DNA of 64,000 nucleotides from Caldilineaceae bacterium (lineage in GTDB: Bacteria > Chloroflexota > Anaerolineae > Caldilineales > Caldilineaceae). The stretch is from NCBI GenBank assembly GCA_965221145.1, contig OZ244877.1, positions 2,002,743-2,066,742 on the forward strand. Direction: 5' to 3'. A model generated the notes under the pieces. The model worked only from the letters and a program-made list of their open reading frames with translations, did no database searches and was not told the origin of the DNA. Both the position numbers and the translations under genes were made by a program. Shown here in pieces: positions 7,171-62,861 of this stretch; within the stretch, counting starts at the first letter, position 1; each line of letters starts with the position of its first letter.

Positions 7171-7179
7171 TTTCCCTCC

Positions 7180-7205: not shown

Positions 7206-7267
7206 GTTATCCTGAAAGCGGATATTCGATTGTTAAGGTGCCTTTTCAAGCAGAACAATCACATCTG

Positions 7268-8817: not shown

Positions 8818-8818
8818 G

Positions 8819-9988: not shown

Positions 9989-10026
9989 GATGGTCGATCC
10001 TTTCATTGGTGTATGTTCAGACGGTT

Positions 10027-12212: not shown

Positions 12213-12297
12213 CGGGCGATTCTCTCCTCATCTGGTAGGAAGGGTGTTTTGATAAAGGTGGGGCGATAGGAGCAACGATTTGTGGAGTGCCTTGCCG

Positions 12298-16502: not shown

Positions 16503-16671
16503 CGGCTGATTGTAACCTTTTGCTTCGGCTGATTGCAACTTTACCCTACGGCTGATCGAGAGATTTCTCCCTCGATGCTGCTCTTTTGAGATCTTTGAGT
16601 GGCCTCTGGCAGCACTTCCTCGATCCGATGCTGCCTGTATCCAGTGTTTCTCGGACCCAGAAGCATATATA

Positions 16672-16746
16672 GTGGGTCCCAATGTTTGGACCACGGAATG
16701 GGAGAAATAAGGTGCATCCAGACGGATGCGGCCGGCTCTGATCAGA
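16672..16746 (-). mobile_element. IS terminal segment adjoining the transposase 3' end
   Basis: Paralogue of 1222-1296 (67/75 identical). Overlaps the stop region of the rve-domain reading frame. Confidence 0.55.
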
Positions 16747-17170
16747 GCACGAAGTGCTCTTCAGCTGGAGTCCGATAGTTGAGACTTTGATGCGGTCTCT
16801 CATGGTTGTAGAAGTCGAAGTAGTCGCGTAAGCCAGCTTGCAATTGGCGCACCGAGTCATAATGGTTGAGATAGATGTTCTCATACTTGACGCTGCGCCA
16901 TAGGCGTTCGCAGAAGACGTTGTGCGCGGCCACGGCCGTCCATGCTGACCTGAACGTTGGCTGCGAGCAGGCAGGCGGTGAAGGCATCGGCCGTGATTGG
17001 AAAGCTGCCAAGCGAGCACATAGCGGCTGTGCCAGTCGATGACAGCGACCAGATACATGAAGCCACGAAGCATCGAACGCTGGAGATAGGCACGACATGG
17101 TACGGCGCCGCGTGGCAGCGGACCGGCACACCGTCTATTTCAGCGTCATCGACAGCGAGTGGCCCGCCGT
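16742..17170 (-). pseudogene. IS3-family transposase (rve/integrase core), N-terminally truncated and frameshifted
   Basis: DDE-core motifs are spread over three frames: YLVAVIDWHSRYVLAWQLSN, then NVQVSMDGRGRA, then CERLWRSVKYENIYLNHYDSVRQLQAGLRDYFDFYNHERPHQSLNYRTP. No upstream OrfA/HTH part is present. Confidence 0.75.
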
Positions 17171-17245
17171 AAAGAAGCGGCTGCAAGGATTGATGCAAAG
17201 GTGATCCCTTTCGCCCCGCAGCCGCGTTACCCGTTCACCTGCGCT

Positions 17246-17428
17246 TCAATGAAGATCATCCCCCGTGCCGTGATGACAGCACGCCAGGCAGGTTACCCAG
17301 TCCACATGCGCGCCGGCCAGCATCTGCGCCCGCGCCCCGGCGTCGAACTCCTCGCCGCAGATGCTAATGAGCTGCTCGCTCGTGTGGAGGTCGAGATGAA
17401 TCTGGCGGTAGCGGAGTAAGTCGTCCAT
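17246..17428 (-). pseudogene. 5' fragment of a glycoside-hydrolase-like gene (truncated next to the IS)
   Basis: MDDLLRYRQIHLDLHTSEQLISICGEEFDAGARAQMLAGAHVDWVTCLACCHHG then stops. The same N-terminal motif recurs at 18870-19205. The family assignment (GH42-related) is from memory of the YRQFHLDFHTS...CHHG pattern. Confidence 0.45.
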
Positions 17429-17650
17429 TGTGTTCCTGTGCAAAAAGATTGACTTATTTAGCGGGGAGAAACGGCTGCCGAATCGAGTTGTAGTGTATTG
17501 CACTGTACAGTTCGAATCAATTGCCTGGCAGCGATTCGAGTCTGCGGGCTGGCGGGAGAATCCTGATGTAATGGGCAACTGCGATGCGCACTTTCAGAAG
17601 GCGGGAAAAGACACCTTGCATAGGAAACGCCCCGTCGCCTGGCGTCCAGT

Positions 17651-17844: not shown

Positions 17845-18744
17845 ATGAACCTTTGCTACATTGACGAATCAGGGACGCCTGACCTGCCGGGCAATACGTC
17901 TCATTTCGTTTTGGCAGGTCTCTCCGTCCCCGATGAGTTTTGGAAGCAGCACAACACCCAACTGGAAAAAATCAAGTTCAGATACGGACTGGGAGATGCC
18001 GAGATTCATGTCGCCTGGATGATGAGGAACTACCTTGAACAAGAGTCGATCCCTGGCTTTCAATCGATGACCCACGAGAGACGCCGGTCAGAAGTGGGCA
18101 AACGCCGCAGGGCAGAGCTTCTTCGCTTACAAAAGGAGAACCGAAAAGGATACAAGCAAACTCGGAAGAACTACAAGAAAACTGAAGCCTATGTGCATCT
18201 CACGCAGTGTGATAGGCGGCAGGCTGTGACAGACATTGCCAAGCTGATTTCAAACTGGGGCGTCGTCCGGTTGTTTGCCGAGTGTATAGACAAAGTGCAT
18301 TTTGACCCTGCGATAACAAACACCACAGTTCACGAACAAGCATTCGAGCAAGTCGTATCCCGCTTTGAGCACTTTCTCCGCAACAATCAATCAGGCTTTG
18401 GGCTTCTCATTCACGACAATAACCAGACTGTCGCCAAAAAACATACCGAACTGATGAAGTCATTCCTGCGCAAGGGGACACTCTGGACACAGATTGAGCA
18501 CATCATTGAAACGCCGATGTTCGTCGATAGCCAATTGAACAGCATGGTTCAGGTGGCTGATCTATGTGCCTACGCCATCCGCCGCTACCTCGAAAATGCA
18601 GAAGAGGATCTCTTCGACCTGATCTTCCAAAGGGCACACAGGGTAGGAGTGACCGCGGTAGGCGTTAGACATTTCACCAGCCCGGGTTGCACGTGCAAGA
18701 TTTGCGCCAACCATGTTTCTCCAACATTAGTAGAAAATCAGTAA
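17845..18744 (+). CDS. DUF3800-family protein
   Basis: 299 aa. N-terminal NLCYIDESGTPDL plus SHFVLAGLSV, and later VQVADLCAYAIRRY, are the hallmark DUF3800 motifs as I recall them. GGAG RBS. It is the only plus-strand gene in this neighbourhood. Confidence 0.7.
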   Translation: MNLCYIDESGTPDLPGNTSHFVLAGLSVPDEFWKQHNTQLEKIKFRYGLGDAEIHVAWMMRNYLEQESIPGFQSMTHERRRSEVGKRRRAELLRLQKENRKGYKQTRKNYKKTEAYVHLTQCDRRQAVTDIAKLISNWGVVRLFAECIDKVHFDPAITNTTVHEQAFEQVVSRFEHFLRNNQSGFGLLIHDNNQTVAKKHTELMKSFLRKGTLWTQIEHIIETPMFVDSQLNSMVQVADLCAYAIRRYLENAEEDLFDLIFQRAHRVGVTAVGVRHFTSPGCTCKICANHVSPTLVENQ

Positions 18745-18869: not shown

Positions 18870-19205
18870 TTACCCCCTCTCTCCTAGAATTGCTCCATCC
18901 GTAGCCACCTGCACCCCCAACACCGTCATAAAGATCGGCACGTGGATATCCAGTGCGTGCGCGGCTTCGCTCTGCTCAGCCACCACATTGCGGGCTAGAT
19001 GCGGGTTCCGCCGTTCCCGCTGCGCCTGCGTGTCGCAGAAGACCATGCCGTGATGCCAGCGCGCGAATCAGGTGACCGAGTGCATATGCGCGTCGGCCAC
19101 CATCTGCGCTCACGTGCCGGCGTCGAACTCCCCACCGATGGTGGTGAGCTGCTCGCTCGTGTGGAAGTCGAGGTGAAACTGGCGGTAACGGAGGAAGTCG
19201 TGCAT
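18870..19205 (-). pseudogene. Second, longer decayed 5' fragment of the same glycoside-hydrolase-like gene family
   Basis: Minus-strand reading gives MHDFLRYRQFHLDFHTSEQLTTIGGEFDAGT*AQMVADAHMHSVT*FARWHHGMVF... with two in-frame stops. The DNA is roughly three-quarters identical by eye to 17246-17428. Confidence 0.55.
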
Positions 19206-19529
19206 TGGGTTGGGTGCTCCTGTTGGATGCGTGACAAAACTATGCATTGAAATGGTACCCATAAACTAATACGACAACCGCATTTTCGGTAGATTCGGGA
19301 ATCAGAGGGAAAAGCAGGTGTCGCGATGGCACAAATGCAGGCTGTTGGCTTGGTTTTCTGACTGCTATACAGCGTTTTCTCGCTCTCTTTATTGCCGGAA
19401 AATCACGATTTGCGGTACTGCGGTTGTAGTACTAAGCGCCGTATTGCATCCAATCAGTCGAAGCAACAGACAGACTCAGATGAGAGATTCTCATCAAGAG
19501 TGATTGCAACTACTAGCAGGTTGGCTAGT

Positions 19530-21356
19530 TCAAGGGCTCGGAAGTTGCTGCTCATTGGATTGCAATTCAATCACATAACGGGAAGGCCCCTTTCTCCAAG
19601 TTGTGTTGTGTCCGCCTCTGTACCAGCCGGAGTAAAGCAGGCAAATCGCATCTTTGGCCCGAGTCATACCTACATAGAATAGACGCCTGGCCTCATCAAA
19701 TTCCTCGGCAGTTCTTGCCCTATAACTGGGAAGGCGGCCCTCTTCTAATCCCGGCACAATCACAACTTTGAATTCCAGTCCCTTACTGCTGTGTAGCGAG
19801 GTAAGTACAACTGTATCCGGTCTGCCTCCACACCCAGCGAATCTATCCAAATCTAATCCTGCCAGAGGCTCTCCCTCGCGACAACCCTCAACTATGGACT
19901 CCCAACCTGCTAGATCGTCTGGGTGCGTCCTTCGTGCATTGAGGCACCATGCCAAGTCTAAGGAAGAGTCCAGTCGGTTGAGCCACTCTACGAAAGGCAT
20001 GTTGGGATCTGCGAGGGAATTAAGAGTTTTGAAGAACCTTGTACGAGTACTTAGGTCTCCAATGTTTAACAATATACCCGCCTCTGCACTAAGAACAGCA
20101 TACCGATAGAACAACTCATCAAATTCGGGGCCCAGTTGGCTATCTGGATATAGTGAACACCACGAAGCGACGTTTTCCAACCACCGAGTAAAAGGAGTTC
20201 TCTGGTAGCGCTGGTCGCGCACGCCCGCATATTTGATGCCCGACTCGTCCAGTGCTTTGCGCAGTTCCTTTGCATCCCATTTGTCCAAAAAGAGGATGGC
20301 AATTTGGTCGTGAGAAATGCCTTGTTTTTCCAAATGAGGTATTAGTCGGGTCGCGATGAACTCTGCCTGCTGGCAAAGACCTCCAGGGCACTTCTTGATG
20401 AAGAGCCCTCCATTGGAGCTTTGTCTGGCAGACACGTAATTCCTTGGTTCAACGGGGTCGAGCACCACCTGTGATTTATCGATTATCTGCTGTATGCTTC
20501 GGTAATTCAAATCAAGAGTGACCTTGTGAACAGCTGAATCTTGTGCCAAGCTTCGCAAATACTTGGGACTAGCACCTGCGAAGCCGTAGATGGATTGGTC
20601 GGGGTCTCCCACGGCAAATACATCCATTTGAGTTAAGCGCATTAGACTCCTAACGATCATGTGGAGAGGATAGCCTAAGTCCTGATATTCGTCCACAACC
20701 AGAAAGGGGAAGCGGGCCTCTAGAGCCGAACGGACAAACTCGTGGCGACGTATCAAATTCAAAGCAACAAGAACAAGGTCGTCAAAGTCCAGCATACGGT
20801 CTTGGCGAAGTCTGCTCTCATAGGTTTCAATTAGCTTCGCCAATTGAGCGTTCTCGAACCATTGATCAGTATCTCTCTCAAGATGGGTCCTTCGGTACTT
20901 GCTCAGTTGGTCCCGATAATCTGCAGGACGACCCATTAATCCAATCTCATTCATGGCCTCCTGGAGGGCTAAGTCCTGTTGGCTAGTCCCCGCTACTGAA
21001 AATTCTGTAAGTAGGTCTTTCCGAAACAGCCGACCAAATGGCGTAACGACGCATTCAAGACAGAAGCTATGAACGGTCCCAATGAATAGTCTTCTGTCCG
21101 AGGAGAATCCGATATCTCCAAGCCTGTTTCTCACTTCTCTTACGGCTTCGTTGTTGTATGTAATGCAAGCTACTCCACGTGGGCCCTTGGTTCCCTGTGT
21201 CAATGAGCGTGCTACTTTTGCTACAAGGACTCGCGTCTTTCCGCTTCCTGGTCCAGCTAGAACAACGCAATGTCCGTCGAAATCTAATGCCTCAGTTTGG
21301 TTTGAATTGAGAGTTTCAATTAGAGTGGCAAGAGTAGGCGGGGGGGAAGTGTTCAT
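19530..21356 (-). CDS. gajB: Gabija GajB, UvrD/Rep-like SF1 helicase
   Basis: 608 aa. Walker A AGPGSGKTRVL, VVDEYQDL, and C-terminal SSKGLEFKVVIV and YVGMTRAK. 4-nt overlap with the upstream OLD-family gene. Confidence 0.85.
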   Translation of the reverse strand: MNTSPPPTLATLIETLNSNQTEALDFDGHCVVLAGPGSGKTRVLVAKVARSLTQGTKGPRGVACITYNNEAVREVRNRLGDIGFSSDRRLFIGTVHSFCLECVVTPFGRLFRKDLLTEFSVAGTSQQDLALQEAMNEIGLMGRPADYRDQLSKYRRTHLERDTDQWFENAQLAKLIETYESRLRQDRMLDFDDLVLVALNLIRRHEFVRSALEARFPFLVVDEYQDLGYPLHMIVRSLMRLTQMDVFAVGDPDQSIYGFAGASPKYLRSLAQDSAVHKVTLDLNYRSIQQIIDKSQVVLDPVEPRNYVSARQSSNGGLFIKKCPGGLCQQAEFIATRLIPHLEKQGISHDQIAILFLDKWDAKELRKALDESGIKYAGVRDQRYQRTPFTRWLENVASWCSLYPDSQLGPEFDELFYRYAVLSAEAGILLNIGDLSTRTRFFKTLNSLADPNMPFVEWLNRLDSSLDLAWCLNARRTHPDDLAGWESIVEGCREGEPLAGLDLDRFAGCGGRPDTVVLTSLHSSKGLEFKVVIVPGLEEGRLPSYRARTAEEFDEARRLFYVGMTRAKDAICLLYSGWYRGGHNTTWRKGPSRYVIELQSNEQQLPSP

Positions 21357-23149
21357 TCGGACAAGACCTTTACAATATACCGGATTCCACCTGTGACGTA
21401 AGACGGGGATTTCCCATCGTTGATTCTGCTTGCCAAGCGTTGAGCCACTCTTCCTTTACCAATTCGTGAGATCGTCTTCATCAGATTCGTAGCCTCACTT
21501 CCATCCAATGGTGTGCTCCGATTCACGATTTCTTCTAGTTCCGCCAATTCCCGCTGAGAGGCACTCAACTCTGCAAGTGAGTCAACCATCTCTTGTCGAA
21601 GCCCACTGTCAAAGAGATCTACTTCTAAGGTACGGTTACCAACGAATACCCCTATCTCCTTAGCCGTTTCAATGGTCTGTGACCACAGTCGGGAGTTATA
21701 CATTTCGTTCAACCTGACTGACTCCGGAAGGCCCAAGGCTTGTGCAACAAGGACTGCGCGACGCAGCCCTCTGCTCGCCTTTTCGCCTTCTTTGGTTTTG
21801 TACCAGTCTCCATCGGTCAGGATCACAAATGGAACATCCAAGCCTGTTGGCCCCAACAGCTTGGCGTAAGGAACAAAGTCCACTCCGTGAACACTGCAAA
21901 CAGTGATCCCATGCTGATCCAAAGGCCTGCCCATAGCCTCTGCGATAGCGGGTATCAAGAACATTTCGGTAGCTCCCTCAACTAGGATGACCCCACGGGC
22001 GAAGAGTATTTCTGCTCTTGTAGTATCTAAGTATCTCTCTAGGTCGGCAATCTCTTGGCTTCCTAGGCCTGCTTGTAGGGTTGACCTTCCCTCCGAACCG
22101 CTACCGCGCTGATCATTCCTTAGCAGCACGACACTTTTAAGGGGAGCCACACTTGCAATGTGGGGTGAGTGTGTTGTTAGGAATATGGGAGGTTCCCGTC
22201 GTAGGAAGTCCTTAAAAACTAGGCGTTGAAGGTGAGGATGCAGATGCGACTCTGGCTCTTCAATCGCAAGAATCGTCTTTGCTCTTTCAACCGCAGCCGT
22301 CTTTTTTTCCAGTTCGACTGCCAAGAGCAAGAGATAGAGCAGGTTGTCTATTCCAAGACTCATTTCTCCCAGTGGCCTCTTTCTTTTGCCGTCCCCAAAC
22401 ATTCGCAGAGACCTCGTTAGCCTTTCGGGGGTCGTTGGAGCAAATCCAAGTGTTGGGTCGATTTGGTGAACGCTGCCAACCATCAGTGAAAGGCGCGACT
22501 GGATTTCCTGGTCCAGTTGCTGGACATCGTTTTCGGCTAGCAGTTGAACTGTTGCGTCGTCGATTTTGTTAGCCACTTGGGAGAGAATTTCAGTTGGTAT
22601 GTCCAGGCGCTCTAAGAGGGGCTTAAGGGGTGATTGCCGCCATGAAGCAAGGTCTCTTTCGGCGTCTCTCAAAGCGGGGAGTACTTCCAGTGGAATCCAT
22701 TTGCGGACGTGGAAGTCAATCTTGTTTTTTTCGGCTTCGCCACCAAAGACAACAAATTCGTAGTCTCTGATACTTATGTCCTGACCTGAGGGCAGATTCT
22801 CCTTGGGTCTAAAGCGGTACGTCAAGAGGGCAGTTACTGAGTCTGTATTAATGCAATACTTTTGCAGAACAGTCAATAGATATTCGTCATTTTGGAAGTC
22901 CTGGAATTCAACTGCAACCTCTATGGTTTTTCCACTCTTTACGGGTTCGCTCAAGCCATCCCAGAAGTCTTCTTCTCGCAGTTGTCTGGAGCTGTCTGAG
23001 AGTCTTGGATCAAGAATCAACCTCAGGGCAAAAAGCAAGTTTGTTTTGCCCACGTTGTTTTCACCTACGACAACGCTCTTGGGGCCTAGCCTTACATCGA
23101 GACTGCGGAAATTTCGAAAGTTCCTCACACGAATTCGAGACATGTGCAT
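21353..23149 (-). CDS. gajA: Gabija GajA, OLD-family ABC-ATPase/TOPRIM endonuclease
   Basis: 598 aa. IRVRNFRNFRSL..., Walker A GENNVGKTN, signature/Walker B region ILAIEEPESHLHP, and TOPRIM VILVEGATEMFLIP with FVILTDGDW. Confidence 0.85.
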   Translation of the reverse strand: MHMSRIRVRNFRNFRSLDVRLGPKSVVVGENNVGKTNLLFALRLILDPRLSDSSRQLREEDFWDGLSEPVKSGKTIEVAVEFQDFQNDEYLLTVLQKYCINTDSVTALLTYRFRPKENLPSGQDISIRDYEFVVFGGEAEKNKIDFHVRKWIPLEVLPALRDAERDLASWRQSPLKPLLERLDIPTEILSQVANKIDDATVQLLAENDVQQLDQEIQSRLSLMVGSVHQIDPTLGFAPTTPERLTRSLRMFGDGKRKRPLGEMSLGIDNLLYLLLLAVELEKKTAAVERAKTILAIEEPESHLHPHLQRLVFKDFLRREPPIFLTTHSPHIASVAPLKSVVLLRNDQRGSGSEGRSTLQAGLGSQEIADLERYLDTTRAEILFARGVILVEGATEMFLIPAIAEAMGRPLDQHGITVCSVHGVDFVPYAKLLGPTGLDVPFVILTDGDWYKTKEGEKASRGLRRAVLVAQALGLPESVRLNEMYNSRLWSQTIETAKEIGVFVGNRTLEVDLFDSGLRQEMVDSLAELSASQRELAELEEIVNRSTPLDGSEATNLMKTISRIGKGRVAQRLASRINDGKSPSYVTGGIRYIVKVLSE

Positions 23150-23307
23150 TTTGCGCTCCTGGCAATGTCAAAGTGATTGAAGAAATACGTTCTTGCAGTT
23201 CTGTTTTCCTTTTCAAACGCGCAGTCTCACAATTATTCGGCAATTGGTAGGCTAAATTCGCGTCTTTCCCTAAGAACGGCAGGCCCTCTTTTCACATAAG
23301 ACTGAGT

Positions 23308-23898
23308 TCATGTGGAAAAGTCGAGGGAATACTTGCCTTCTCTTTTCCGAAAGGATATGTTTGTTCGCCCATATTCGATAAGTTTCGTCTTGGTGATTCG
23401 TTCCTCCAATCTGATTCCCAGACGATCTCGAATGTACTTACTAAGAATCTGATAGTTCCCAACGGTAACCAGGAGACGAGAAAGATCGCCTGTCGTCTTC
23501 ATAATCAAGGTTTCGCCATCATCCGTAGTAACGTTAAATGCTTCTTGGGGCTTTGGAAAGAATGACCAGTTCGCCGGTTCAATGAGAATAGCCGCCTGAT
23601 AGTTGTGATAGTGTGGGCTGTGCCCCATGTTCAAGCGGGAACTTTTGGGCACTTGTCCTTGGCGATTTAAGAGGGATATAGTGATCACCTCCCTCTCGTC
23701 TACGAAATTCTGCTCGTCGGTAGTTTCTTGTGAAGAGGGTTTGCCCCCTGAGCCTTCCTGTTCTAGATTTTCCGGTGGCGATTCTTCTGTCAACACGTCG
23801 CCCTGAAGAATCGTCAATACGTCTTGAATTGAAATCGTCAGTTCTACTAGACGACGATTCATTTCAAACAAGGCTAGATAAAGCTGTCGTGTTCCCAT
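23308..23898 (-). CDS. Small protein with a C-terminal B3-like DNA-binding domain (as in PLD-family restriction enzymes) but no nuclease domain
   Basis: Start at MGTRQ (ATG 23898, GGGAGGA RBS). The C-terminal ~120 aa (ISLLNRQGQVPKSSRLNMG..., FNVTTDDGETLIMKTTG..., ILSKYIRDRLGIRLEERITKTKLIEYGRTNISFRKREGKYSLDFS) follows the pattern I recall for the BfiI/NgoFVII C-terminal domain. The N-terminal ~70 aa are coiled-coil/acidic. Needs HMM confirmation. Confidence 0.55.
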   Translation of the reverse strand: MGTRQLYLALFEMNRRLVELTISIQDVLTILQGDVLTEESPPENLEQEGSGGKPSSQETTDEQNFVDEREVITISLLNRQGQVPKSSRLNMGHSPHYHNYQAAILIEPANWSFFPKPQEAFNVTTDDGETLIMKTTGDLSRLLVTVGNYQILSKYIRDRLGIRLEERITKTKLIEYGRTNISFRKREGKYSLDFST

Positions 23899-24037
23899 GA
23901 TTCCTCCCATAGGCTGTATTGCTGACTGTCTGTTGCTATGTCAACATGATAATACCATGGCCCCGTCATCCATTCAAATTTTGACTACATTGTAGCGCAT
24001 TTTGTGCCACACCCCAAAAATATTTCAACACTGTGGA

Positions 24038-24293: not shown

Positions 24294-24581
24294 CTAATCT
24301 GAGTTCGTATATCCACCTCCCTCCTGCAAGTTGAGCGCCAGCAACTCCACCAACGCATCCTCCTCCGAAATGTCGGACGGCCAACCATACGCCGCCGCGA
24401 CCGCCGCGTCCAGTGCCGCGTGCGCCTCCGCCAACCACTGCGGAGGCGCATTGTACAGATTCGTCAGTGTGTGCGCCTTCAACGCCTTCGCCGCCGCTTA
24501 GTCGCAGGGAACCGCCCGCCTGAGATACCCCGCCACCGGCTCATCCACCCACTCCACCCATTCCGGCGGGTTGAGCCTGCG
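24294..24581 (-). pseudogene. Detached copy 1 of the MmeI-family gene 3' end (most diverged, frameshifted)
   Basis: RLNPPEWVEWVDEPVAGYLRRAV in one frame, then AHTLTNLYNAPPQWLAEAHAALDAAVAAAYGWPSDISEEDALVELLALNL in another. Homologous to the last ~95 aa of the 27572-30418 gene. Confidence 0.75.
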
Positions 24582-24712
24582 GTCGTGAACAGCAGACGAT
24601 GAGGCGAATAGAATAAATTGTCGCCTAAGGCAGCTACCGGATTGCGACTTTGAGGTTATTGCGACCCCGCTGGCACGCCAGGGCGCGGGATCGCCGTCAG
24701 CAGCAAGTTGCA

Positions 24713-24919
24713 TTAGCGGTGTGGTGACTGTTCGCCAATCAGCGGAGCGACAACGCCCCCCATGCCGATAACGATGTTGGCAAGGTCGCCGATCAGCTTT
24801 TGGGTCTCGGCCAACCCTTTCGTATTGCGGTCCTGCTGTTCGGCAATCCTGTCCAGCGTGGCATCAATGCGATCGTAGCGTCTTTCCCACTCGGGGCGGT
24901 CATCCATCTCTTGCGTCAT
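24713..24919 (-). CDS. Small coiled-coil protein S1 (68 aa), unknown function
   Basis: ATG with an AGGAGG RBS. RIDATLDRIAEQQDRNTKGLAETQKLIGDLANIVIGMGGVVAPLIG. Same architecture as S2-S4 (helical N-terminus, short hydrophobic C-terminus). Confidence 0.5.
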   Translation of the reverse strand: MTQEMDDRPEWERRYDRIDATLDRIAEQQDRNTKGLAETQKLIGDLANIVIGMGGVVAPLIGEQSPHR

Positions 24920-25150
24920 GGTCGGGGGCCTCCTGGTTTGCGTGAGAAGCTATTGGGCTGAAACCACAACGCAATCGTAGCGGCAGCCCATCCCGCTGTC
25001 AAGCGTATCCGCGTTCACTTTGTAAACACACTCTGCCACGTCGGGCGTTAAACGAGACCGCTGTGCCCGAATCACAGCCCATCCCCTAATCACACAAATC
25101 ACAGTTCAGACTATCGGCGCGGAAAGTCTTGCTTTTCAGGAAAATCCACA

Positions 25151-25552
25151 TCAAGAACCCCCCTGCGCCAAATTCAACGCCAACAACTCCCCCAGCGCAT
25201 CCTCCTCCGAAATATCTACCTCCCATCCATACGCCGCCGCCACCGCCGCATCCAGAGCCGCGTGCGCATCCGCCAACCACTGCGGTCGCGCATTGTACAG
25301 ATTCGTCAACGTCCGCGCCTTCAACGCCTTCGCCGCCTTTTCGTCGCGTGCAACCGCCCGCTTTGGATACCCCGCCACCGGCTCGTCCACCCACTCCACC
25401 CACTCCGGCGGATTCAGCCAGCGCTCCCGAAGCTCCACCAGCCCCCGCGCCGCAGCATCCAGTGAACTGCCAAAACGAAACGGTGACTGGCTACTTCTTT
25501 GCCTGCGTAGACGCGTTTGTGTCCTCGCACGAATGCGTAAAGTTTCTGCCAC
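25151..25552 (-). pseudogene. Detached copy 2 of the MmeI-family gene 3' end (reading frame still open, no convincing start)
   Basis: ...SPFRFGSSLDAAARGLVELRERWLNPPEWVEWVDEPVAGYPKRAVARDEKAAKALKARTLTNLYNARPQWLADAHAALDAAVAAAYGWEVDISEEDALGELLALNLAQGGS. Very similar to the intact gene tail. The listed M is a GTG with no RBS. Confidence 0.7.
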
Positions 25553-25620
25553 GGATGGTTGGCGATTCCGTTGCAGCGATATGAGCGCCCCGGTCGGCTT
25601 GCCGGCCGGGGCGTGGGCGG

Positions 25621-25896
25621 TTAGCTATCGTCACGGGCGGGCGGGGTAATGATGGTTGCAATGAAGTTGATCGCGCCGGCGAGCGTGTTGATCTGTTCAG
25701 ATACGTTTTCGATTCGCTTCGTCAAGCGGTCGATCTGTTCAGAGTTGGCGGAGACCTGCTGATCCGTGCGGTCTTGGCGTGCGGCGATCTGTGCAGAGTT
25801 GGCGGCGATTTGTGCAGAGTTGGCGGCGATCTGTTCTGCGTTCTGTTGCAGGATGCTTTCGATGCGGTCAAGGCGGCTGTTGTTTCGTTCTGTCAT
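25621..25896 (-). CDS. Small coiled-coil protein S2 (91 aa)
   Basis: MTERNNSRLDRIESILQQNAEQIAANSAQIAANSAQIAARQDRTDQQVSANSEQIDRLTKRIENVSEQINTLAGAINFIATIITPPARDDS. AAGGA RBS. Close paralogue of S3. Confidence 0.55.
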   Translation of the reverse strand: MTERNNSRLDRIESILQQNAEQIAANSAQIAANSAQIAARQDRTDQQVSANSEQIDRLTKRIENVSEQINTLAGAINFIATIITPPARDDS

Positions 25897-26037
25897 TGGT
25901 CCTTTCCTTTCTGTGATAAGTTACCAATAAAATAAATTGCCGTCCATTTGACCGAACGCAGAAAACGTCAGCATGGCCTGATCTTTCCGAATTGGGAACC
26001 GTTCTATAACGGCCCGCGCGGCTTCTTGGTGCGCGCT

Positions 26038-26128
26038 AAGTAACTGTCCACAAACAACGTAGCGATTTCAACCAAGATCGAACCGATATGTCGAACGAAA
26101 CCGCTAAGTTAAAAGTGGACAATTACTT
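26038..26128. repeat. 91-nt element with terminal inverted repeats (copy E1)
   Basis: AAGTAACTGTCCAC...GTGGACAATTACTT ends. The interior is about 85% identical by eye to 46774-46863. Confidence 0.7.
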
Positions 26129-26138
26129 GGCGGAAGTG

Positions 26139-26372
26139 TCAACGCTCCCATGACGCCCGCTCGTCCTTTAGGTAGGATTCCACCTCCTCCGCAGTCTCGA
26201 AGAGGCGCTGCCCCGGCGCTTCTTTCAGAATCTCAACTGTGGACCGCTGTACAGACCCCAATGAGTGAAGCACCACCACGTTGACAGACTCCCCAACAGG
26301 AAGCTTCTGGTCGACAATTTCAATCCTCCCTCCTGGCAACACCGTTGTTGTTATGTGAAGCGCCTTCTGCAT
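26139..26372 (-). CDS. Small antitoxin-like protein (orphan, no toxin partner seen)
   Basis: 77 aa. ATG with an AAGGGGA RBS. N-terminus ITTTVLPGGRIEIVDQKLPVGESVNVVV (swapped-hairpin/DUF104-like look). C-terminus ILKEAPGQRLFETAEEVESYLKDERASWER. Family call is tentative. Confidence 0.45.
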   Translation of the reverse strand: MQKALHITTTVLPGGRIEIVDQKLPVGESVNVVVLHSLGSVQRSTVEILKEAPGQRLFETAEEVESYLKDERASWER

Positions 26373-26454
26373 TGTCTGTGTCCCCTTTCATGCAATGGTC
26401 GTCCTCGGGGTCGCTCAATTCGTCCACCCTCCCAGTCATCCATGCCAGTATATT

Positions 26455-26491
26455 GCAAGCACGGAATTGCTGGCAAGAATTCCGTGCTTGC
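26455..26491. other. Perfect 14-bp-stem hairpin
   Basis: GCAAGCACGGAATT-gctggcaag-AATTCCGTGCTTGC, about 58 nt downstream (minus sense) of the stop of detached copy 3. No U-tract, so it is not called a terminator. Confidence 0.6.
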
Positions 26492-26548
26492 TCTGTTTCC
26501 CGCCAAGGTGTTTCGGATAAGGCGCACGCAACTGAGAACTGCTTTGAC

Positions 26549-26895
26549 TCAAGACCCGCTCCCCTCCCCCAAATTCAGCGCCAACAACTTCCCCAGCGCC
26601 TCCTCCTCCGAGATGTCCGCAGTCCAGCCGTAGGCAGCCGCGACCGCGGAATCAAGAGCCGCGTGCGCGCCTGCAACGCTTTCGCCGCCGTCCCGTCCCG
26701 TGCCACCGCCCGCTATGGATACCCCGCGACCGGCTCGTCCACCCATGCCGGCGGATTCAGCCAGCGGTCGCGCAGTTCCACCAGCCGCCGCGCCGCAGCA
26801 TCCAGTGAACTGCCAAATCGAAACGGTGACAAGCTACCGCTTTGCCTGCGTAGACGCGTTTGTGTCCTCGCACGAATGCGTAAAGTTGCTGCCAC
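26549..26895 (-). pseudogene. Detached copy 3 of the MmeI-family gene 3' end (internal deletion plus frameshift)
   Basis: SPFRFGSSLDAAARRLVELRDRWLNPPAWVDEPVAGYP in one frame and AHAALDSAVAAAYGWTADISEEEALGKLLALNLGEGSGS in another. The KRAVARDE...QWLAD segment is missing. Confidence 0.75.
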
Positions 26896-26963
26896 GGATG
26901 GTTGGCGATTCCGTTGCAGCGATATGAGCGCCCCGGCCGGCTTGCCGGTCGAGGTGTGGGCGG

Positions 26964-27185
26964 TTAGCTATCGTCACGGGCGGGCGGGGTGATGATGGTT
27001 GCAATGAAGTTGACCGCGCCGGCAAGCGTGTTGACCAGGGCAGACAGGTTTTCGAGACGCTTTGTCAGGCGGTCGATCTGCTCAGAGTTGGCGGCGATCT
27101 GCTGATCCGTGCGCTCTTGGCGTTCGGCGATCTTTTCCAGGATGCTTTCGATGCGGTCTAGGCGGCTGTTGTTTTGCTCTGTCAT
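26964..27185 (-). CDS. Small coiled-coil protein S3 (73 aa)
   Basis: Start at MTEQNNSRLDRIESILEKIAERQERTDQQIAANSEQIDRLTKRLENLSALVNTLAGAVNFIATIITPPARDDS (ATG 27185, AAGGA RBS). The track ORF to 27356 is over-extended. Confidence 0.55.
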   Translation of the reverse strand: MTEQNNSRLDRIESILEKIAERQERTDQQIAANSEQIDRLTKRLENLSALVNTLAGAVNFIATIITPPARDDS

Positions 27186-27213
27186 TGGTCTTTTCCTTTC
27201 ATTTTCAAAAGTA

Positions 27214-27429
27214 TCAATCCTGATGGGCGGGCGGCGTGGACTGTGAGATATGCCCCTGAACGGCGGCGCGTAGGAAACCGATCTCTTGTGAGAGCTTGGC
27301 GATCTGTTCAGAGTTGGCGGCGATCTGTTCCGCGTTGCGGTCCAGTATCCACACAATGCGATCTAAGCGTTCGTCAATGTTGGCGATCTGTTCTGCGTTG
27401 CGGGATTCACGGCTTTTGAACCACTTCAT
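27214..27429 (-). CDS. Small coiled-coil protein S4 (71 aa)
   Basis: Start at MKWFKSRESRNAEQIANIDERLDRIVWILDRNAEQIAANSEQIAKLSQEIGFLRAAVQGHISQSTPPAHQD (ATG 27429, AGGAAA RBS). It lies 28 nt upstream of S3. Confidence 0.5.
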   Translation of the reverse strand: MKWFKSRESRNAEQIANIDERLDRIVWILDRNAEQIAANSEQIAKLSQEIGFLRAAVQGHISQSTPPAHQD

Positions 27430-27571
27430 CTTGTGTTTTCCTTTCCTGTGATAAGTTACCGACAAAAAATAAGTTCCGTCCTTTTAACCGAACGCAGCAA
27501 ACGTCAGTATGGCCTGAACTTTCCGATTTTGGAATCGTTCTATATCGGCCCACGCGGCTTCCTGGTGCGCG

Positions 27572-30418
27572 CTAACTGTCTCCACTTGCCAAATTTAACG
27601 CCAACAAAGCCCCAAGCGCATCCTCCTCCGAAATATCGGCCTCCCACCCATACGCCGCCGCCACCGCCGCGTCCAGAACTGCGTGCGCATCCGCCAACCA
27701 CTGCGGACGCGCATTGTACAAATTCGTCAGCGTCCTTGCCTTCAGCGCCTTCGCCGCCGCCTCGTCACGCGCAACCGCCCGCTTCGGATACACCGCCACC
27801 GGCTCCTCCACCCACACCACCCATTCCGGCGGATTCAGCCAGCGGTCCCGCAGTTCCACCAGCCGCCGCGCCGCCTCCGCAATCGCCACCGCATGCACAT
27901 CCTTCGCATAGTCATCAGCAGGAATGTCGGGAGACAACCCTTGCGGGAAGGGGAACGTCTGAAATGTCGTGGTCGGCGTGTAGCGTGGATCATTGCCTTG
28001 CCCAAGCCATGTGCAGAGCCGCAGCGACCACGCCTCATGAAAGCGGCTGTGCAGGATGCCGAACGTCGTGTCGTCGTCGCGGGCGATGACGATCAATTGG
28101 CAATCAGGGCAGACACGAGGGTCACACCAAATGAAGAGCCGATACTTCGCAACACGCGGTGTGACGATAAATCGCGACAGACCGTTAAGTCTTTGCCATG
28201 TTTTGGGCCCAGGTGTTGCGTGCCGATACCAGAATCTCGCCCGACTTCTGTTGCGACCGCTCAGACGCATCGGTTTAACATGCTCGTCGATGTGGGCGAA
28301 CGGAGCTTCATAAAATGCCGTTTCGGACTCCTCCATCTCAAAGCCAAAGTCGATAATCCACTTGCCAGACGGGCGGCGGGTCAAATCCATGCCGTTCACC
28401 CAAGGCTTGAGGACATCGGAGTTTGGCCTTCCATTTGGATTGGCCGGAAGCCGAAGCCATGCCCGGGCCAATTCCCCTGGGATATCGAACGGGCCATTCT
28501 TTTTGTCACCCATGAACGCTGCGTTCCGATTGCGAGGCAGCTTCTGGGCCAGTGTCAGGTCGGCAGCCTCTGAAGTCAGATCAGCGTTTATGCGAGGCAC
28601 TGATTTTCCATTCAAGTGTGTGGGCAAACCTGCGTCCATGGAAGCAAAGCAAACCAGCGATACCCGCACCGCTGCGCCATCAACCACCCATGGTTCGTCC
28701 GACCAGGCATCGTAGATCAAGCTGTCTTCTACGATGTGGCCTAACACCGCGCGGCTGCGCCCGCCGCGGATCGAATTGGTAGCGACGAGGCCGGCACGGG
28801 CAATCTTGCATTCTGCGACCAGCCGCGCCGCCTTGTCGAACCAGTAACAGACCAAGTCGGCATCTCCGTCAATGCGCGCACCGTAGCGATTCCGCAAAGT
28901 CTCGAAATAAGAATCGCCCAAACTGCGCCTCAGAATCGTGCCCCCCAGAAAGGGCGGATTGCCGATCACCACATCCGCCTCCGGCCACTCCGGTTCCCCC
29001 CCGTCCGCCGCCAATATCGCATCGCGGCACTCAATCGTGTCCAGCGGCTCCAGGATCGGATCGCGCGCCCCGCTGAATCCATTCCGACGCATCCACTGGA
29101 TCTCCCCAATCCATACCGACACCCGCGCCAGTTCAGCCGCATATGGGTTGATCTCGATCCCCTTCACATTCGCCGGGCCGACCGCCGGAAACGCCCGCTG
29201 CAAGCCCATCGACTCCGCCTCCAGCTGCACCCGGTGCTCTACGTCCTTCAGCGCATGAAGCGCCAGATAGAGGAAGTTCCCCGACCCGCACGCCGGATCC
29301 AGCACTGTGAAAGCCCGTAGCCTTTCGAGGAAATTTCGCAGTGTGCTCTCTGCACGACCGCGCTGTCGCGTTCGTCCGGCGCTCGTCGCCGCCACGTCCG
29401 CCCGCTCCAGCCGCAGCGAGATTTCGGCTCTTGTCCGCTCCCACTCTCTTAGCCACGGGCGCATCACCACCGGCTCGATGATCTGCATGATCTTGTCGCG
29501 GTCGGTGTAATGCGCGCCCAACTGCGAACGTTTGGCCGGGTCCAGCCCGCGCTCGAACAGCGTGCCCAGGATCGACGGGTCGATCTCCGACCAGTCCAGC
29601 GCGGCCGCCTTGAGTGTCGTCTCGATCTCGCTCCGCTCCAGTGGCAGCGCGTCATCGCTGTCGAACAACCCGCCGTTGAACCAGGCCACCGTCTCAAACC
29701 CGACCCGTCCCCCCGTCGCCATCGTTCCGAACAGCTCGCCCGCCATCGCCGCGAAATCCTGCGGCCGCCGCCGGGCGTGTTCCAACATGCGCGTGAACAT
29801 TTCGTTCGGCAGCAGACCCACATCCTCGGCGAACATGCAGAAGACCAGCCGGTTGACGAAGTGCGCCACCGCCTGCGGGTCGTGGCCGCGCGCCCGCAGC
29901 GCCTGCGCCAACGCCGCGAAGGCCCTCGCAGCCCGCTCGGTCAGCGCCTGGCGGCTCTCCCCCGGACGCAGCCGCTCCGGGTCCGACATCGCCCACTTGA
30001 GCTTGTCGCGCACCGCCGCGTCCGCCAGCTCTTTCAGCGTAAACTCGTGCCTCTCGCTTACGCTGTTGGTCCAGTTGGTGTAGATGCGGAAGCGCGCCAT
30101 GTCGGAGACCACCAGCAGCGGCGGGTTCTCCAGCGCCAGCGCGTATTGGCGCAACTGGTTGAACGCCGCGTCCAGGTCCTTGTGCTTGCCCTTGTACTCC
30201 CACGCGAAGCAGTGCCGCCTCCACACGTCCGCCCAGCCGGAGCCTCCCGTGTCCTTGCGCGCGCCGCGCTCAAAGCAGTAGCGTTCGCCGGTCGGGTCCT
30301 CCTCCGCCGGTGTCGGCTCGCCCAGCAACCGGCACAGGTCGATGAAATGCTCCTGCGCCGCCGAACGCTCCTTCAACTCCGAAGCCCGCCACTTGGCGAT
30401 AAACTCCTGCGCTCTCAT
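27572..30418 (-). CDS. MmeI-family type IIL (IIG) restriction-modification enzyme: fused PD-(D/E)XK nuclease, N6-adenine methyltransferase and target-recognition region
   Basis: Start at MRAQEFIAKW (ATG 30418, GAGGAG RBS). N-terminal D-X9-E-X-K (WADVWRRHCFAWEYKGK), SAM motif I VLDPACGSGNFL, catalytic motif IV VIGNPPFLGG. 948 aa. No pglZ or brx genes nearby. Confidence 0.8.
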   Translation of the reverse strand: MRAQEFIAKWRASELKERSAAQEHFIDLCRLLGEPTPAEEDPTGERYCFERGARKDTGGSGWADVWRRHCFAWEYKGKHKDLDAAFNQLRQYALALENPPLLVVSDMARFRIYTNWTNSVSERHEFTLKELADAAVRDKLKWAMSDPERLRPGESRQALTERAARAFAALAQALRARGHDPQAVAHFVNRLVFCMFAEDVGLLPNEMFTRMLEHARRRPQDFAAMAGELFGTMATGGRVGFETVAWFNGGLFDSDDALPLERSEIETTLKAAALDWSEIDPSILGTLFERGLDPAKRSQLGAHYTDRDKIMQIIEPVVMRPWLREWERTRAEISLRLERADVAATSAGRTRQRGRAESTLRNFLERLRAFTVLDPACGSGNFLYLALHALKDVEHRVQLEAESMGLQRAFPAVGPANVKGIEINPYAAELARVSVWIGEIQWMRRNGFSGARDPILEPLDTIECRDAILAADGGEPEWPEADVVIGNPPFLGGTILRRSLGDSYFETLRNRYGARIDGDADLVCYWFDKAARLVAECKIARAGLVATNSIRGGRSRAVLGHIVEDSLIYDAWSDEPWVVDGAAVRVSLVCFASMDAGLPTHLNGKSVPRINADLTSEAADLTLAQKLPRNRNAAFMGDKKNGPFDIPGELARAWLRLPANPNGRPNSDVLKPWVNGMDLTRRPSGKWIIDFGFEMEESETAFYEAPFAHIDEHVKPMRLSGRNRSRARFWYRHATPGPKTWQRLNGLSRFIVTPRVAKYRLFIWCDPRVCPDCQLIVIARDDDTTFGILHSRFHEAWSLRLCTWLGQGNDPRYTPTTTFQTFPFPQGLSPDIPADDYAKDVHAVAIAEAARRLVELRDRWLNPPEWVVWVEEPVAVYPKRAVARDEAAAKALKARTLTNLYNARPQWLADAHAVLDAAVAAAYGWEADISEEDALGALLALNLASGDS

Positions 30419-30740
30419 CTCCTCACCAACAACCCTCCGCCCCAACCGGGGCCGTTGAACCAACCTTGCTCGCATCCAGTCTATCCCAACCGGCGCGGCC
30501 AGCCAATCCCTGCGTGGCAGAAGGCACATCTCACTCCGTGCTTGCCCTCCTGCGCGTGCATCCCGGAACTGGAGTTACCCCCCCGCAGTCGCCCATGCCT
30601 CTATCCTTCGTTCCGGCCTGAGGCGACCGCATCTACCGCGCATTTGCCGAAGGCCGGACCCCTTCGTGTCCTTCGTGGATCGCTTCGTAGTTGACCGTAG
30701 GCAATGGAACCTTCCGCTTCAACGGACCACCCCCATATTG

Positions 30741-32022
30741 GGATGCACCCTTCGCCTGCAAACCCCGCGCGCCACCAAATGGCTGCATCCGAAATGATTG
30801 GGTCATTGCGATCTGCCCTTTCAACCGACGAATTTGAAGGTTTCTTGTATTGGCGTTGGCAATAAAAGCCTCTCCGCCAAAAAAATTTCAAAATAGATCC
30901 ACGGAACAAGAATCGGCCCGTCGTCTGTTATCCTGACAATCCTTTTATCCTGAAAATCCTGATTCAGACAACGTTCGCCCAACAATCCTGGATGCACCCC
31001 GAAGGCCGCCGGGTGCATCCCAAATGATTGGGTCGTTGCGATCTGCCCTTTCAACCTTCAAGAAAGATCCACGGAACCAGAATCGGCCCGTCGTCTGTTA
31101 TCCTGCTGAATCCACAAATCCTGAAAATCCTGATTCAGACAACGTTCGCCCTAAAATCCTGGATGCACCCCGAAGGCCGCCGGGTGCATCCCAAATGATT
31201 GGGTCGTTGCGATCTGCCCTTTCAACCTTCAAAATAGATCCACGGAACCAGAATCGGTCCGTCGTCTGTAATCCTGCTGAATCCACAAATCCTGAAAATC
31301 CTGATTCAGACAACGTTCGCCCAACAATCCTGGATGCACCCCGAAGGCCGCCGGGTGCATCCCAAATGATTGGGTCGTTGCGATCTGCCCTTTCAACCTT
31401 CAAAATAGATCCACGGAACCAGAATCGGTCCGTCGTCTGTAATCCTGCTGAATCCACAAATCCTGAAAATCCTGATTCAGACAACGTTCGCCCAACAATC
31501 CTGGATGCACCCCGAAGGCCGCCGGGTGCATCCCAAAAGATTGGGTCGTAGCGATCTGCCCTTTCAACCTTCAAAATAGATCCACGGAACAAGAATCGGC
31601 CCGTCGTCTGTTATCCTGCTGAATCCACACATCCTGAAAATCCTGATTCAGACAACGTTCGCCCAAAAATCCTGGATGCACCCCGAAGGCCGCCGGGTGC
31701 ATCCCAAATGATTGGGTCGTTGCGATCTGCCCTTTCAACCTTCAAAATAGATCCACGGAACAAGAATCGGTCCGTCGTCTGTAATCCTGCTGAATCCACA
31801 AATCCTGAAAATCCTGATTCAGACAACGTTCGCCCAAAAATCCTGGATGCACCCCGAAGGCCGCCGGGTGCATCCCAAATGATTGGGTCGTTGCGATCTG
31901 CCCTTTCAACCTTCAAAATAGATCCACGGAACAAGAATCGGCCCGTCGTCTGTTATCCTGAAAATCCTGATTCAGACAACGTTCGCCCAAAAATCCTGCA
32001 AACGCCACGCGCCACCAAATTG
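30741..32022. repeat. Tandem array of a ~171-bp unit (one long variant unit, five full units and one partial unit)
   Basis: CAAATGATTGGGTC recurs at 31022, 31192, 31363, 31534 (variant), 31705 and 31876. Each unit carries the hairpin GGATGCACCC-cgaaggccgcc-GGGTGCATCC (e.g. 30990-31020, 31161-31191) and the core AATCCTGAAAATCCTGATTCAGACAACGTTCGCCC. Both strands are open by repetition, so it is probably non-coding. Confidence 0.9.
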
Positions 32023-45352: not shown

Positions 45353-45512
45353 GATTGCTGACTTCTGGAAACTGGCCCATGAGCCCTAGGTCCCGAACGA
45401 TTGTCGCCACAAGGAAACTGCAAGCCCCATCGCTCAGGCCAACTCCCAACTCCCCGCCCCTAGGTGCTTGCGCCCGTTCGATTAGCGACTTCTGGGACTG
45501 TGTTAAGCCCAT
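45291..45512 (-). CDS. Small ORF translationally coupled to the MTase stop; possibly the detached N-terminus of the endonuclease
   Basis: The ATG at 45512 overlaps the MTase stop (CTATGGGCTTAA). 73 aa, and runs 62 nt into the REase ORF in a frame offset by one. Confidence 0.3.
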   Translation of the reverse strand: MGLTQSQKSLIERAQAPRGGELGVGLSDGACSFLVATIVRDLGLMGQFPEVSNLELPDFFEESDFGETQATES

Positions 45513-62739: not shown

Positions 62740-62861
62740 CGGCGGGCTAATTCTTTCGACGCGAAATCCACATTGGATCAGGGTCGGTCTAAAATCGAGG
62801 GTATGTGCTATAATCGTCTCAGAATGAGGCCGGCCAGGATAATTTGTGGAGCTCAGAAATC

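Follow-up and report, generated by a model that had tools for sequence, protein, structure and literature searches.

Why should the end of a restriction gene be found four times in a row, once on the gene itself and three times, detached, downstream of it? The question is raised by a 64-kb stretch of DNA from a Caldilineaceae bacterium (contig OZ244877.1, positions 2,002,743 to 2,066,742), hereafter called the window, which carries an intact restriction-modification (R-M) gene of the MmeI family, detached copies of its 3' end, here called tails, and four small genes, S1 to S4, interleaved with these copies. We consider it an even bet that the last ~300 bp of the MmeI-family gene are a recombination hotspot, and that the array records repeated displacement of 3' ends, in which a fossil attachment-site (att) junction was combined with homologous, unequal recombination between tails.

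The detached 3' ends of the restriction gene

The intact gene is contained in an open reading frame (ORF) whose likely start is at 30418, since homologues align from residue 38. In this ORF, the Pfam domains MmeI_N, MmeI_hel, and MmeI_Mtase score above cutoff, and MmeI_TRD and MmeI_C just below, whilst PADLOC classifies the 985-aa product as REase_MTase_IIG (E about 1e-299). The predicted protein has the architecture of the single-polypeptide type IIL/IIG enzymes of the MmeI family, i.e., putative nuclease, helical-spacer, gamma-class N6-adenine methyltransferase, target-recognition, and C-terminal domains.

Self-comparison of the window and self-BLAST revealed that the last 300 nt of this gene recur three times downstream on the same strand (Table 1). 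Tail 1, the end of the intact gene, is 90% identical at the nucleotide level to tail 3 (27874-27588 vs. 25453-25167, E 6e-109) and 84% identical over 258 nt to tail 4 (24584-24327, E 7e-77). The match to tail 2 consists of two segments, of 81% (26796-26661) and 75% identity (26657-26569). These matches are far above chance, confirming that the repeats are real. An earlier note on this DNA, made from the sequence alone, had described the three co-oriented copies, the four paralogous small ORFs S1 to S4 with motifs resembling ribosome-binding sites (RBS), and the repetition of the non-coding flanks, and all of these were found again, at the same coordinates for the S ORFs and with 87 and 94% identity for the flanks called flankA and flankB, respectively. 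Its description of the copies themselves needs correction. Tail 4 is not frameshifted, as had been claimed, but contains one in-frame TAA, both ORF pieces being in the same frame. In tail 2, for which an internal deletion and a frameshift had been noted, there are two deletions, of 9 and 49 nt, and a premature TAG. Finally, tails 2 and 3 do not begin at 26895 and 25552; the part homologous to the gene begins at codon 886 (26796 and 25453), and the 33 codons upstream are non-coding flank.

Tails 2 and 3 join flankB, which is unrelated to the MmeI-family gene, at one and the same junction. The possibility that flankB represents a diverged upstream part of the gene was rejected, since neither DNA nor translated similarity to any part of an MmeI gene was detected. 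The basic repeat unit can be written as tail-flankA-Sbeta-Salpha-flankB, where Salpha and Sbeta are subtypes of the S genes. The spacer before tail 4 was considered as the remnant of an MmeI 5' end, left by a deleted tandem paralogue, but local alignment scores were no better than those of shuffled sequences, so that this reading is unsupported rather than refuted. Neither the window nor any of six related loci was found to contain a transfer RNA (tRNA) or transfer-messenger RNA (tmRNA) gene that could have served as a target, and no known RNA family was found in the segment 23000-32500 at E values up to 0.1. The Escherichia coli Chi octamer, GCTGGTGG, is present at the start of tails 1 to 3 (27858-27865, 26780-26787, and 25437-25444, minus strand), inside the RLVE codons. 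It was set aside as probably a coincidence of these codons; moreover, the consensus is that of E. coli and may not be that of the host.

Table 1. Features of the array and its surroundings. Positions are those of the window.
Feature	Position	Strand	Basis or remarks
Intact MmeI-family type IIL/IIG R-M gene	27572..30529	-	985-aa ORF
Codons 882-887 (AIAEAA), equivalent to the attB core position	27869..27886	-	Junction alignment; start of detached tails 2 and 3
Tail 1, last 100 codons of the intact gene, repeated segment	27575..27874	-	Self-BLAST
Tail 2, detached pseudogene copy	26549..26796	-	9-nt deletion, 49-nt deletion, premature TAG
Tail 3, detached copy, open	25151..25453	-	133-aa ORF 25552-25151 including flank-encoded leader; MmeI_C sub-threshold (Pfam)
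Tail 4, most diverged detached copy	24294..24590	-	Homology from codon about 892; in-frame TAA 24500-24498
FlankA copy 1, non-coding, directly after the stop codon	27430..27571	-	Terminator-like hairpin 27494-27477 (terminator scan)
FlankA copy 2	25903..26039	-	27575-27437 vs. 26039-25903 87% identical
FlankB copy 1, non-coding, abuts tail 2	26797..26963	-	94% identical to 25620-25454; candidate fossil element end
FlankB copy 2, non-coding, abuts tail 3	25454..25620	-	94% identical to copy 1
Strain-variable insert with 77-aa ORF O77 (26372-26139)	25970..26421	-	Promoter-like site upstream (promoter scan); palindrome 26491-26455 upstream
S4 (Sbeta subtype), 71 aa, coiled coil, C-terminus FLRAAVQGHISQSTPPAHQD	27214..27429	-	Homologues P0002-P0004 and in L009
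S3 (Salpha subtype), 73 aa, coiled coil and hydrophobic C-terminus	26964..27185	-	Only sub-threshold XhlA/holin-like matches
S2, 91 aa, Sbeta-type N-terminus fused to Salpha-type C-terminus	25621..25896	-	Chimera via 235-bp deletion
S1 (Sgamma subtype), 68 aa	24713..24919	-	Promoter-like site 25002-24974
Defence cargo of this strain only, beyond the last tail: 200-aa NgoFVII_C-like protein, Gabija GajA/GajB	19530..23910	-	Pfam, PADLOC
Detached 5' fragment of GHL6-family gene, far boundary of the variable cargo	19038..19262	-	Second copy 17225-17578
attB of the integrase-island family in orthologues			GTGGCTGTAGCCCTGGAAGCCCGACG
attP of the integrase-island family, arms in L090			TCGGAAGCCCTGTCCACCAT

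Substitution patterns in the tails

In Nei-Gojobori counts over 100 codons, the ratio of replacement to synonymous substitution (dN/dS) was 0.20 for tail 1 vs. tail 3, for tail 1 vs. tail 2, and also for tail 2 vs. tail 3, which are both detached. It was 0.33 for the intact tails 2 and 3 of strain L002, 0.27-0.35 for orthologous detached tails, and 0.21 for the pair of tails in L029, an alphaproteobacterial locus discussed below. A neutral excess of replacement changes was rejected at about p = 0.002 by our own estimate. As locally decaying copies should approach a ratio of 1, a value of about 0.2 even between detached copies indicates that each tail was once the end of a working gene. Furthermore, the synonymous divergence between tails (0.25-0.65) is several-fold above the divergence of the adjoining non-coding flankB (5-6%), suggesting that most of it arose under selection in a gene, or via gene conversion from one.

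All tails encode the same domain, with 77-95% aa identity, and there is no correspondence between S subtypes and tail variants. In a comparison of 90 tails, those of the window lineage were each other's nearest relatives, which suggests that the source alleles came from close relatives and not from distant phyla. Identity drops gradually along the repeat, from 90-98% in flankB to 90-94% in the first 100 nt of the tail and 80-92% in the remaining part. A gradual decay of this kind is easier to explain by crossovers at points within the tails than by crossovers that always fall on one fixed core. We regard the detached tails as relics without a working role.

The tail boundary and the attB of integrase islands in orthologues

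Orthologues of the gene with 66-82% aa identity were found in more than 590 loci of a species-representative genome collection, in Chloroflexota, Latescibacterota, Binatia, Alphaproteobacteria, Gemmatimonadota, Acidimicrobiia, and others; the closest are in Caldilineaceae. The presence of orthologues with ~70% aa identity across many phyla points to extensive horizontal spread. The names of most of the matching metagenome-assembled genomes (MAGs), i.e., SB0661, Poriferisodalis, and similar ones, suggest by themselves that these are sponge symbionts. Several MAGs contain two copies of the gene far apart on one chromosome (L016/L020, L018/L037, L049/L061, L060/L071, and L028/L083).

Tails 2 and 3 of the window start at codons 883-886, with homology to the gene from codon 886, in the linker between the target-recognition and the C-terminal domains. 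In orthologous locus L090 (1526-10030), the body of the MmeI-family gene ends at AVAVAL, followed by STI and a stop codon, and a P4-type tyrosine integrase follows 113 nt later. After 8.4 kb of cargo, including AbiTii and a BsuBI/PstI-type R-M system, a detached tail is found. The left junction (attL) reads GGCTGT-AGCCCTG-TCCACCAT and the right junction (attR) TCGGA-AGCCCTG-GAAGCC-tail, with AGCCCTG as the core. L083 (12544) shows a left end of the L090 type with an 87% identical integrase, and L138 (2948-7477) contains the whole of a 4.5-kb element, including both of its ends. From the outer halves, once joined, an attB can be predicted, GTGGCTGTAGCCCTGGAAGCC (GGCTGT-AGCCCTG-GAAGCC), that is in frame and of native length, and exactly this sequence is present, uninterrupted, in the intact genes of L038 (12545), L052 (12545), and L075 (12599), which represent three phyla. 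The attP side of the island family reads TCGGA...TCCACCAT, and its right arm contains the conserved motif ACGAGGGRTGYAAYGAGGGGAA. Together, the attL and attR sequences of L090, L083, and L138 and the uninterrupted attB argue that codons 884-885 are a genuine attB of P4-type tyrosine-integrase islands. These islands truncate the MmeI-family gene that they target.

A search with the tail-3 ORF yielded thousands of matches, the best 120 of which are all short proteins, although this shortness may partly reflect the selection of candidates and no frequency was drawn from it. Among 47 short orphan-tail ORFs inspected, 17 consist of an unrelated leader followed by SEALEA(R/Q)RLVELRDRW..., which is the attR reading SEALEA(R/Q)RLVEL. 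Another class of orphan ORFs begins with MPAADY (codon 867).

The flankB-tail junction of the window is located two codons from the class-I core. A comparable junction is present in L029 of the Alphaproteobacteria, where an intact gene is followed by cargo, a 402-aa ORF unrelated to the cargo of the window, and by an old tail that starts at codon 884/885; an integrase is absent. Between the two tails of L029, the relationship is no closer than that of either to tails from other phyla, and the junction is independent. Elsewhere, the boundary is at a different position: at codon about 892 in tail 4, at codon 920 in L047, and at codon 813 in L050, which has McrBC as cargo and is also devoid of an integrase, whilst L069 represents an insertion-sequence (IS) insertion at codon 952. 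Thus, a common 5' boundary of the copies, on which the interpretation in the earlier note depended, was found in the alignment for tails 2 and 3, but not for tail 4.

The S genes

S1 to S4 are homologous. Their products share an N-terminus, MTEQNNSRLDRIE, vary in the number of heptad-type repeats, and have C-termini of three subtypes, whilst the ORFs are preceded, at a distance of 6-10 nt, by purine-rich RBS-like motifs. Seven copies of S1 were found across the strains; all are intact, and the ratio of the proportions of replacement and synonymous differences (pN/pS) is 0.07-0.47, mostly 0.1-0.3. S4 is 100% identical in four strains, i.e., those of the window, L001, L002, and L085. These data indicate that the S genes are real, conserved genes under purifying selection. 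S2 can be recognized as a chimera of two S genes because L001 and L002 carry a separate 94-aa Sbeta and a 70-aa Salpha gene at its position, where the window has lost 235 bp.

The S family is small, with about 45 members in 5.8 billion proteins, and its genes are nearly always located beside type IIG genes or their remnants. In L009 and L152/153, the gene order is Sgamma-MmeI-Sbeta, without spare tails, the MmeI gene of L152/153 being reduced to residues 25-285. Orphan tails precede an Sbeta gene in L156/157, and an S-like gene adjoins a different type IIG gene in L155. Because they flank the gene in L009 and L152/153, the S genes appear to be the usual neighbors of the MmeI-family gene in Caldilineaceae and not the cargo of an independent element. 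Thus, each module appears to be a duplicate of the 3' end of the gene and of its downstream neighbors, and the S genes were carried along with the duplicated segment rather than being mobile themselves.

Searches of Pfam, PADLOC, NCBIfam, PHROGs, and PDB profiles for a function of the S proteins gave only coiled-coil noise and, for the Salpha type, sub-threshold XhlA/holin-like matches. The family is a candidate for an accessory function. Elsewhere in the window (62844-63791, plus strand), a 315-aa protein is encoded with about ten 14-residue repeats, LAESQQRTDQHVEL, and a DUF3782-like C-terminal part. The likeness of these repeats to the S proteins is probably one of coiled-coil composition only.

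Variation of the array among strains

The window was compared with five metagenome assemblies of the same chromosomal site (L001, L002, L003, L084, and L085). The flanks of L001 and L085 are 97-99% identical to those of the window, L084 was assigned by the same neighboring genes, and L002 and L003 are shorter contigs. Module content differs among these six assemblies: there are three tails in L001, four in the window, L002, and L085, at least four on the short contig L003, and six in L084. Thus, the number of modules at the orthologous locus of relatives, a comparison proposed in the earlier note, is indeed variable. In L084, four copies of the unit of S1 and tail, 92-94% identical, follow one another at a period of about 912 bp, an amplification which demonstrates that unequal crossing-over also acts on the array. 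Several tails of L084 are broken, and a 60-nt insertion is located exactly at its flankB-tail junction. Tail 2 is intact in both L001 and L002. The insert that contains O77 is missing from L001 and L002 but present in L085, and a homologue of O77 is found in L009.

Variation also affects the intact gene. Among the conspecific window, L001, and L085, the part encoding target recognition (28100-29000, minus strand, codons about 510-810) is 69-78% identical at the nucleotide level, whereas the remainder of the gene and its flanks are 93-100% identical, which suggests that specificity domains have been swapped between alleles. Directly upstream of the gene (30887-32000), tandem repeats of ~171 bp are found, each containing an inverted repeat; their copy number varies among strains.

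A possible origin of the array

The array may have arisen as follows. From where the junction lies, and from the likeness to L090, L083, and L138, we infer that an integrative element with a tyrosine integrase inserted at codons about 883-886. This event would have left a junction between the element end and a tail, and flankB would be the remnant of that element end. Subsequently, DNA carrying the junction would have recombined with an intact allele through the 300-bp homology of the tails, in a Campbell-type event or by unequal crossing-over, within or between strains. Such DNA might have come as a fragment from the array of another strain, or as a circle released by recombination between tails. 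The outcome would be that a new tail with its terminator-bearing flank, Sbeta, and Salpha is set before the resident tail, which is thereby detached. The later processes can be seen at work in the strains compared: units are gained and lost by unequal crossing-over between tails, deletions fuse or remove genes, and detached tails decay. An origin in these two stages, insertion followed by homologous recombination, accounts for the inherited junction, the signature of selection, the gradual decay of identity, the termination of the array in a tail, the differences between strains, and the amplification in L084, all without a resident integrase. The earlier note had offered serial site-specific integration, in which each element brings a replacement 3' end. 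Of this idea, it holds that the tails are displaced working ends, that the number of modules varies (3-6), that the boundary is within two codons of a position used as an attB in orthologues of other phyla, and that L029 provides a parallel; the modules, however, are not independent mini-elements.

Several observations weigh against the two-stage origin. The junction and the class-I core are two codons apart. AGCCCTG is missing from the present allele of the window and from its junctions, and neither an exact core repeat nor a pair of empty and filled sites with core duplication was seen in the window lineage. FlankB resembles the right ends of integrase islands only in a short motif at a similar distance, a weak match, which falls short of demonstrating a site-specific insertion step in this lineage. 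As already stated in the earlier note, an integrase is absent: no tyrosine or serine recombinase was found among the scanned ORFs of the window, where the only recombinase-related genes are an IS-type rve fragment (16546-17131) and Cas1. The tail boundaries, at codons 892, 920, and 813 besides those near the attB, are clustered but not uniform. Furthermore, L088 (1744-10348), L089 (2089-10360), L136, and L138 contain an integrase and a tail, without an MmeI body on the left; this side is occupied by a PQQ-repeat gene in L088 and L089 and by unrelated sequence in L136 and L138 (upstream of 2948), and in L138 a 13-mer, AGGTTGTGGAGCG, precedes both element ends. A metagenome scan with 17 nt of attL gave 61 matches, only three of which were accompanied by an integrase, none of these three with an MmeI body on the left; the other matches were taken as chance matches. 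The low dN/dS could also be explained by gene conversion by a functional copy or by selection on expressed tail ORFs. Finally, with the clustering of the tails of the lineage, no import from a distant genome is visible.

Among the alternatives, a purely local tandem duplication of the segment from tail through flankA and S genes to flankB, followed by unequal crossing-over, deletion, and decay, would need neither a site-specific step nor incoming alleles. Both flanks and the junction are common to units 1 and 2, the fourfold amplification in L084 is of this kind, the tails of the lineage are mutual nearest relatives, and the S genes are native neighbors of the gene; the variation in copy number and the head-to-tail arrangement are as expected from unequal crossing-over. 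Yet, neutral divergence since duplication is not what was found (dN/dS 0.20-0.33, and about 0.2 between detached copies, where decay should approach 1), and the dS of the tails (0.25-0.65) is far above the 5-6% of flankB. Besides, the array terminates in a tail and not in flankB, the modules are unequal in content, with S4 and S3 in the first, O77 and S2 in the next, and S1 in the last, and the boundary coincides with the attB of orthologues and with the independent junction of L029. Thus, local duplication is unlikely to be the whole explanation. Tandem duplication with decay, also listed in the earlier note, is part of the history, but is insufficient alone in view of the dN/dS values and the attB coincidence.

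The units might also be cassettes that are still mobile, lacking an integrase of their own, bounded by att sites, and moved in trans by a tyrosine integrase whose gene is located in another part of the genome or arrives with a visiting island. The sharp common 5' boundary beside the attB would be understandable, as would the variation of module number and order by strain and the 60-nt insertion in L084 precisely at the flankB-tail junction, and related integrases are common in these communities. We nevertheless regard this as quite improbable, since the core is found neither in the gene nor at the junctions of the window, identity decays gradually and not stepwise across the junction, the window contains no integrase, and no pair of empty and filled sites with exact core duplication was seen in the lineage.

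It is very doubtful that the array is a working system, with S proteins acting in control, immunity, or anti-restriction and with spare tails as silent cassettes for the C-terminal domain or as stand-alone domain proteins. The S genes are under purifying selection, and there are at least five contexts in which they adjoin a type IIG gene, of the MmeI family or another (the window lineage, L009, L152-154, L155, and L156/157); tail 3 of the window and tail 2 of L001 and L002 are open, and the dN/dS of orthologous detached tails is 0.27-0.35. However, about 75 of 80 orthologous loci have neither S genes nor spare tails, tails 2 and 4 of the window and several in L084 are broken, and the tails are so nearly alike in aa sequence (77-90% identity) that swapping would change little. 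In addition, the linkage of the S genes may be mere synteny within one bacterial family, and the S proteins gave no informative family or structural match. Readings of the array as polymorphic-toxin-like, as an integron, or as diversity-generating were rejected, since the tails are not variable and matching enzymes or sites were not found.

The surrounding island

Beyond the last tail, the cargo differs in every strain, with an NgoFVII_C-like gene and Gabija in the window, HEPN in L001, BrnT and others in L002, and DUF6414 in L085. The Gabija system of the window is complete (GajA 23149-21353, E 1e-213; GajB 21356-19530, E 1e-195; PADLOC), and the neighboring 200-aa protein carries the B3-like DNA-binding domain of the NgoFVII C-terminus. 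This stretch has a low G+C content of 45-50% and is present in the window strain only, being replaced in L001, L002, and L085, where the cargo ends at the same fragment of a GHL6-family glycoside hydrolase gene. As the cargo is located between the tails and the GHL6 fragments, the locus is a variable island that is both bounded and partitioned by fragments of two genes. We propose that defence cargo is exchanged between strains, with the last tail as one homology arm and the GHL6 fragment as the other.

Two 5' fragments of the GHL6-family gene, both on the minus strand, bracket a DUF3800 gene (17845-18744) in the window, and the full-length GHL6 gene is found in L152/153. These fragments mirror, on the other side of the island, what is seen for the tails. 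The island is adjoined by a type I-E CRISPR-Cas (clustered regularly interspaced short palindromic repeats and associated genes) locus (6250-14979), with Cas3 at 12298-14979, an ORF of Cse1 size at 10626-12212, and Cas1 at 6250-7170. An AAA_14/DUF4143 gene and the rve fragment mentioned above, which is of the IS3 type, are found near the CRISPR-Cas genes. At some distance, an insert of low G+C content (44498-46732) contains a C5 cytosine methyltransferase gene (45503-46732) and a 284-aa ORF (44498-45352). This insert, which probably represents another small R-M island, lies within a group of leu/ilv, ppc, and aconitase-family genes.

Relation to known systems and biological meaning

Displaced fragments of a target gene are known from islands at tRNA and tmRNA genes (Islander, PMC4383910), at dusA (PMC4482086), and at trmE in the case of SGI1, Salmonella genomic island 1 (PMC8409611). 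Like such 3'-end islands, the window contains an intact target gene, cargo, and displaced, co-oriented end copies in series; a P4-type integrase, a 7-bp core, and an uninterrupted attB at this position are features of the orthologues L090, L083, and L138, not of the window. Unlike them, the window has neither an integrase nor an exact core repeat, its units measure 0.8-1.4 kb, its cargo consists of the usual neighbors of the gene, and what is repeated is a 300-bp stretch with 78-90% identity, instead of a short exact core. Moreover, the integrase islands in other phyla truncate their target (AVAVAL-STI-stop) rather than restoring it.

Cis-mobilizable elements and the tandem accretion of integrative elements have also been described (ICEberg 2.0, PMC6323972; review of integrative mobilizable elements, PMC5704250). 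The array would resemble these in being composed of integrase-less segments with putatively att-derived repeats at one site, in strain-variable number and composition. Homologous recombination between long, diverged repeats appears to be at least as important here. With hotspots for defence islands, the locus shares the strain-specific cargo (Gabija, HEPN, BrnT, DUF6414) between conserved anchors and the neighboring CRISPR-Cas and R-M genes, but its anchors are gene fragments, the 3' end of the MmeI-family gene and the 5' end of the GHL6 gene, which are present in multiple copies and partition the island into cassettes. A large gene with detached copies of its 3' end and small genes downstream is reminiscent of the orphan cassettes of contact-dependent inhibition (CDI) and Rhs systems and of silent-cassette systems. 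In contrast to these, the detached ends, several of which are disrupted, are not functionally variable, and the small genes do not come in pairs with distinct C-terminal variants. The array also differs from an integron: no IntI was found, and the repeats between the modules are 300-bp coding tails and not attC-type palindromes, for which no dedicated search was made. No report of an R-M gene as a target of such islands was found in the literature searched. New are, then, the use of an R-M gene as the target, the integrase islands that truncate it, and a miniature, integrase-less array with the gene's own neighbors as passengers.

If the array resulted only from local duplication and decay, it would be a useful marker of strain history without wider consequence. 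If displacement occurred as proposed, a conserved piece of a restriction gene would be a portable recombination handle, and the cast-off ends would be a record of past allele replacements and of turnover at a defence locus. A broader reading is possible, although we hold it only tentatively. According to this reading, the linker codon pair of a type IIL gene that is found across phyla would be a dedicated landing site for tyrosine-integrase defence islands, which cut off the C-terminal domain and thereby disable or switch the resident restriction. The orphan tails in symbiont genomes and the array in the window would then be footprints of insertion and of repair by allele replacement, and the S genes would encode unrecognized partner proteins of the restriction cassette. 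With an attB (GGCTGT-AGCCCTG-GAAGCC) inside an R-M gene that is used in several phyla by islands carrying Abi and R-M systems, defence islands would compete by inserting into each other's genes.

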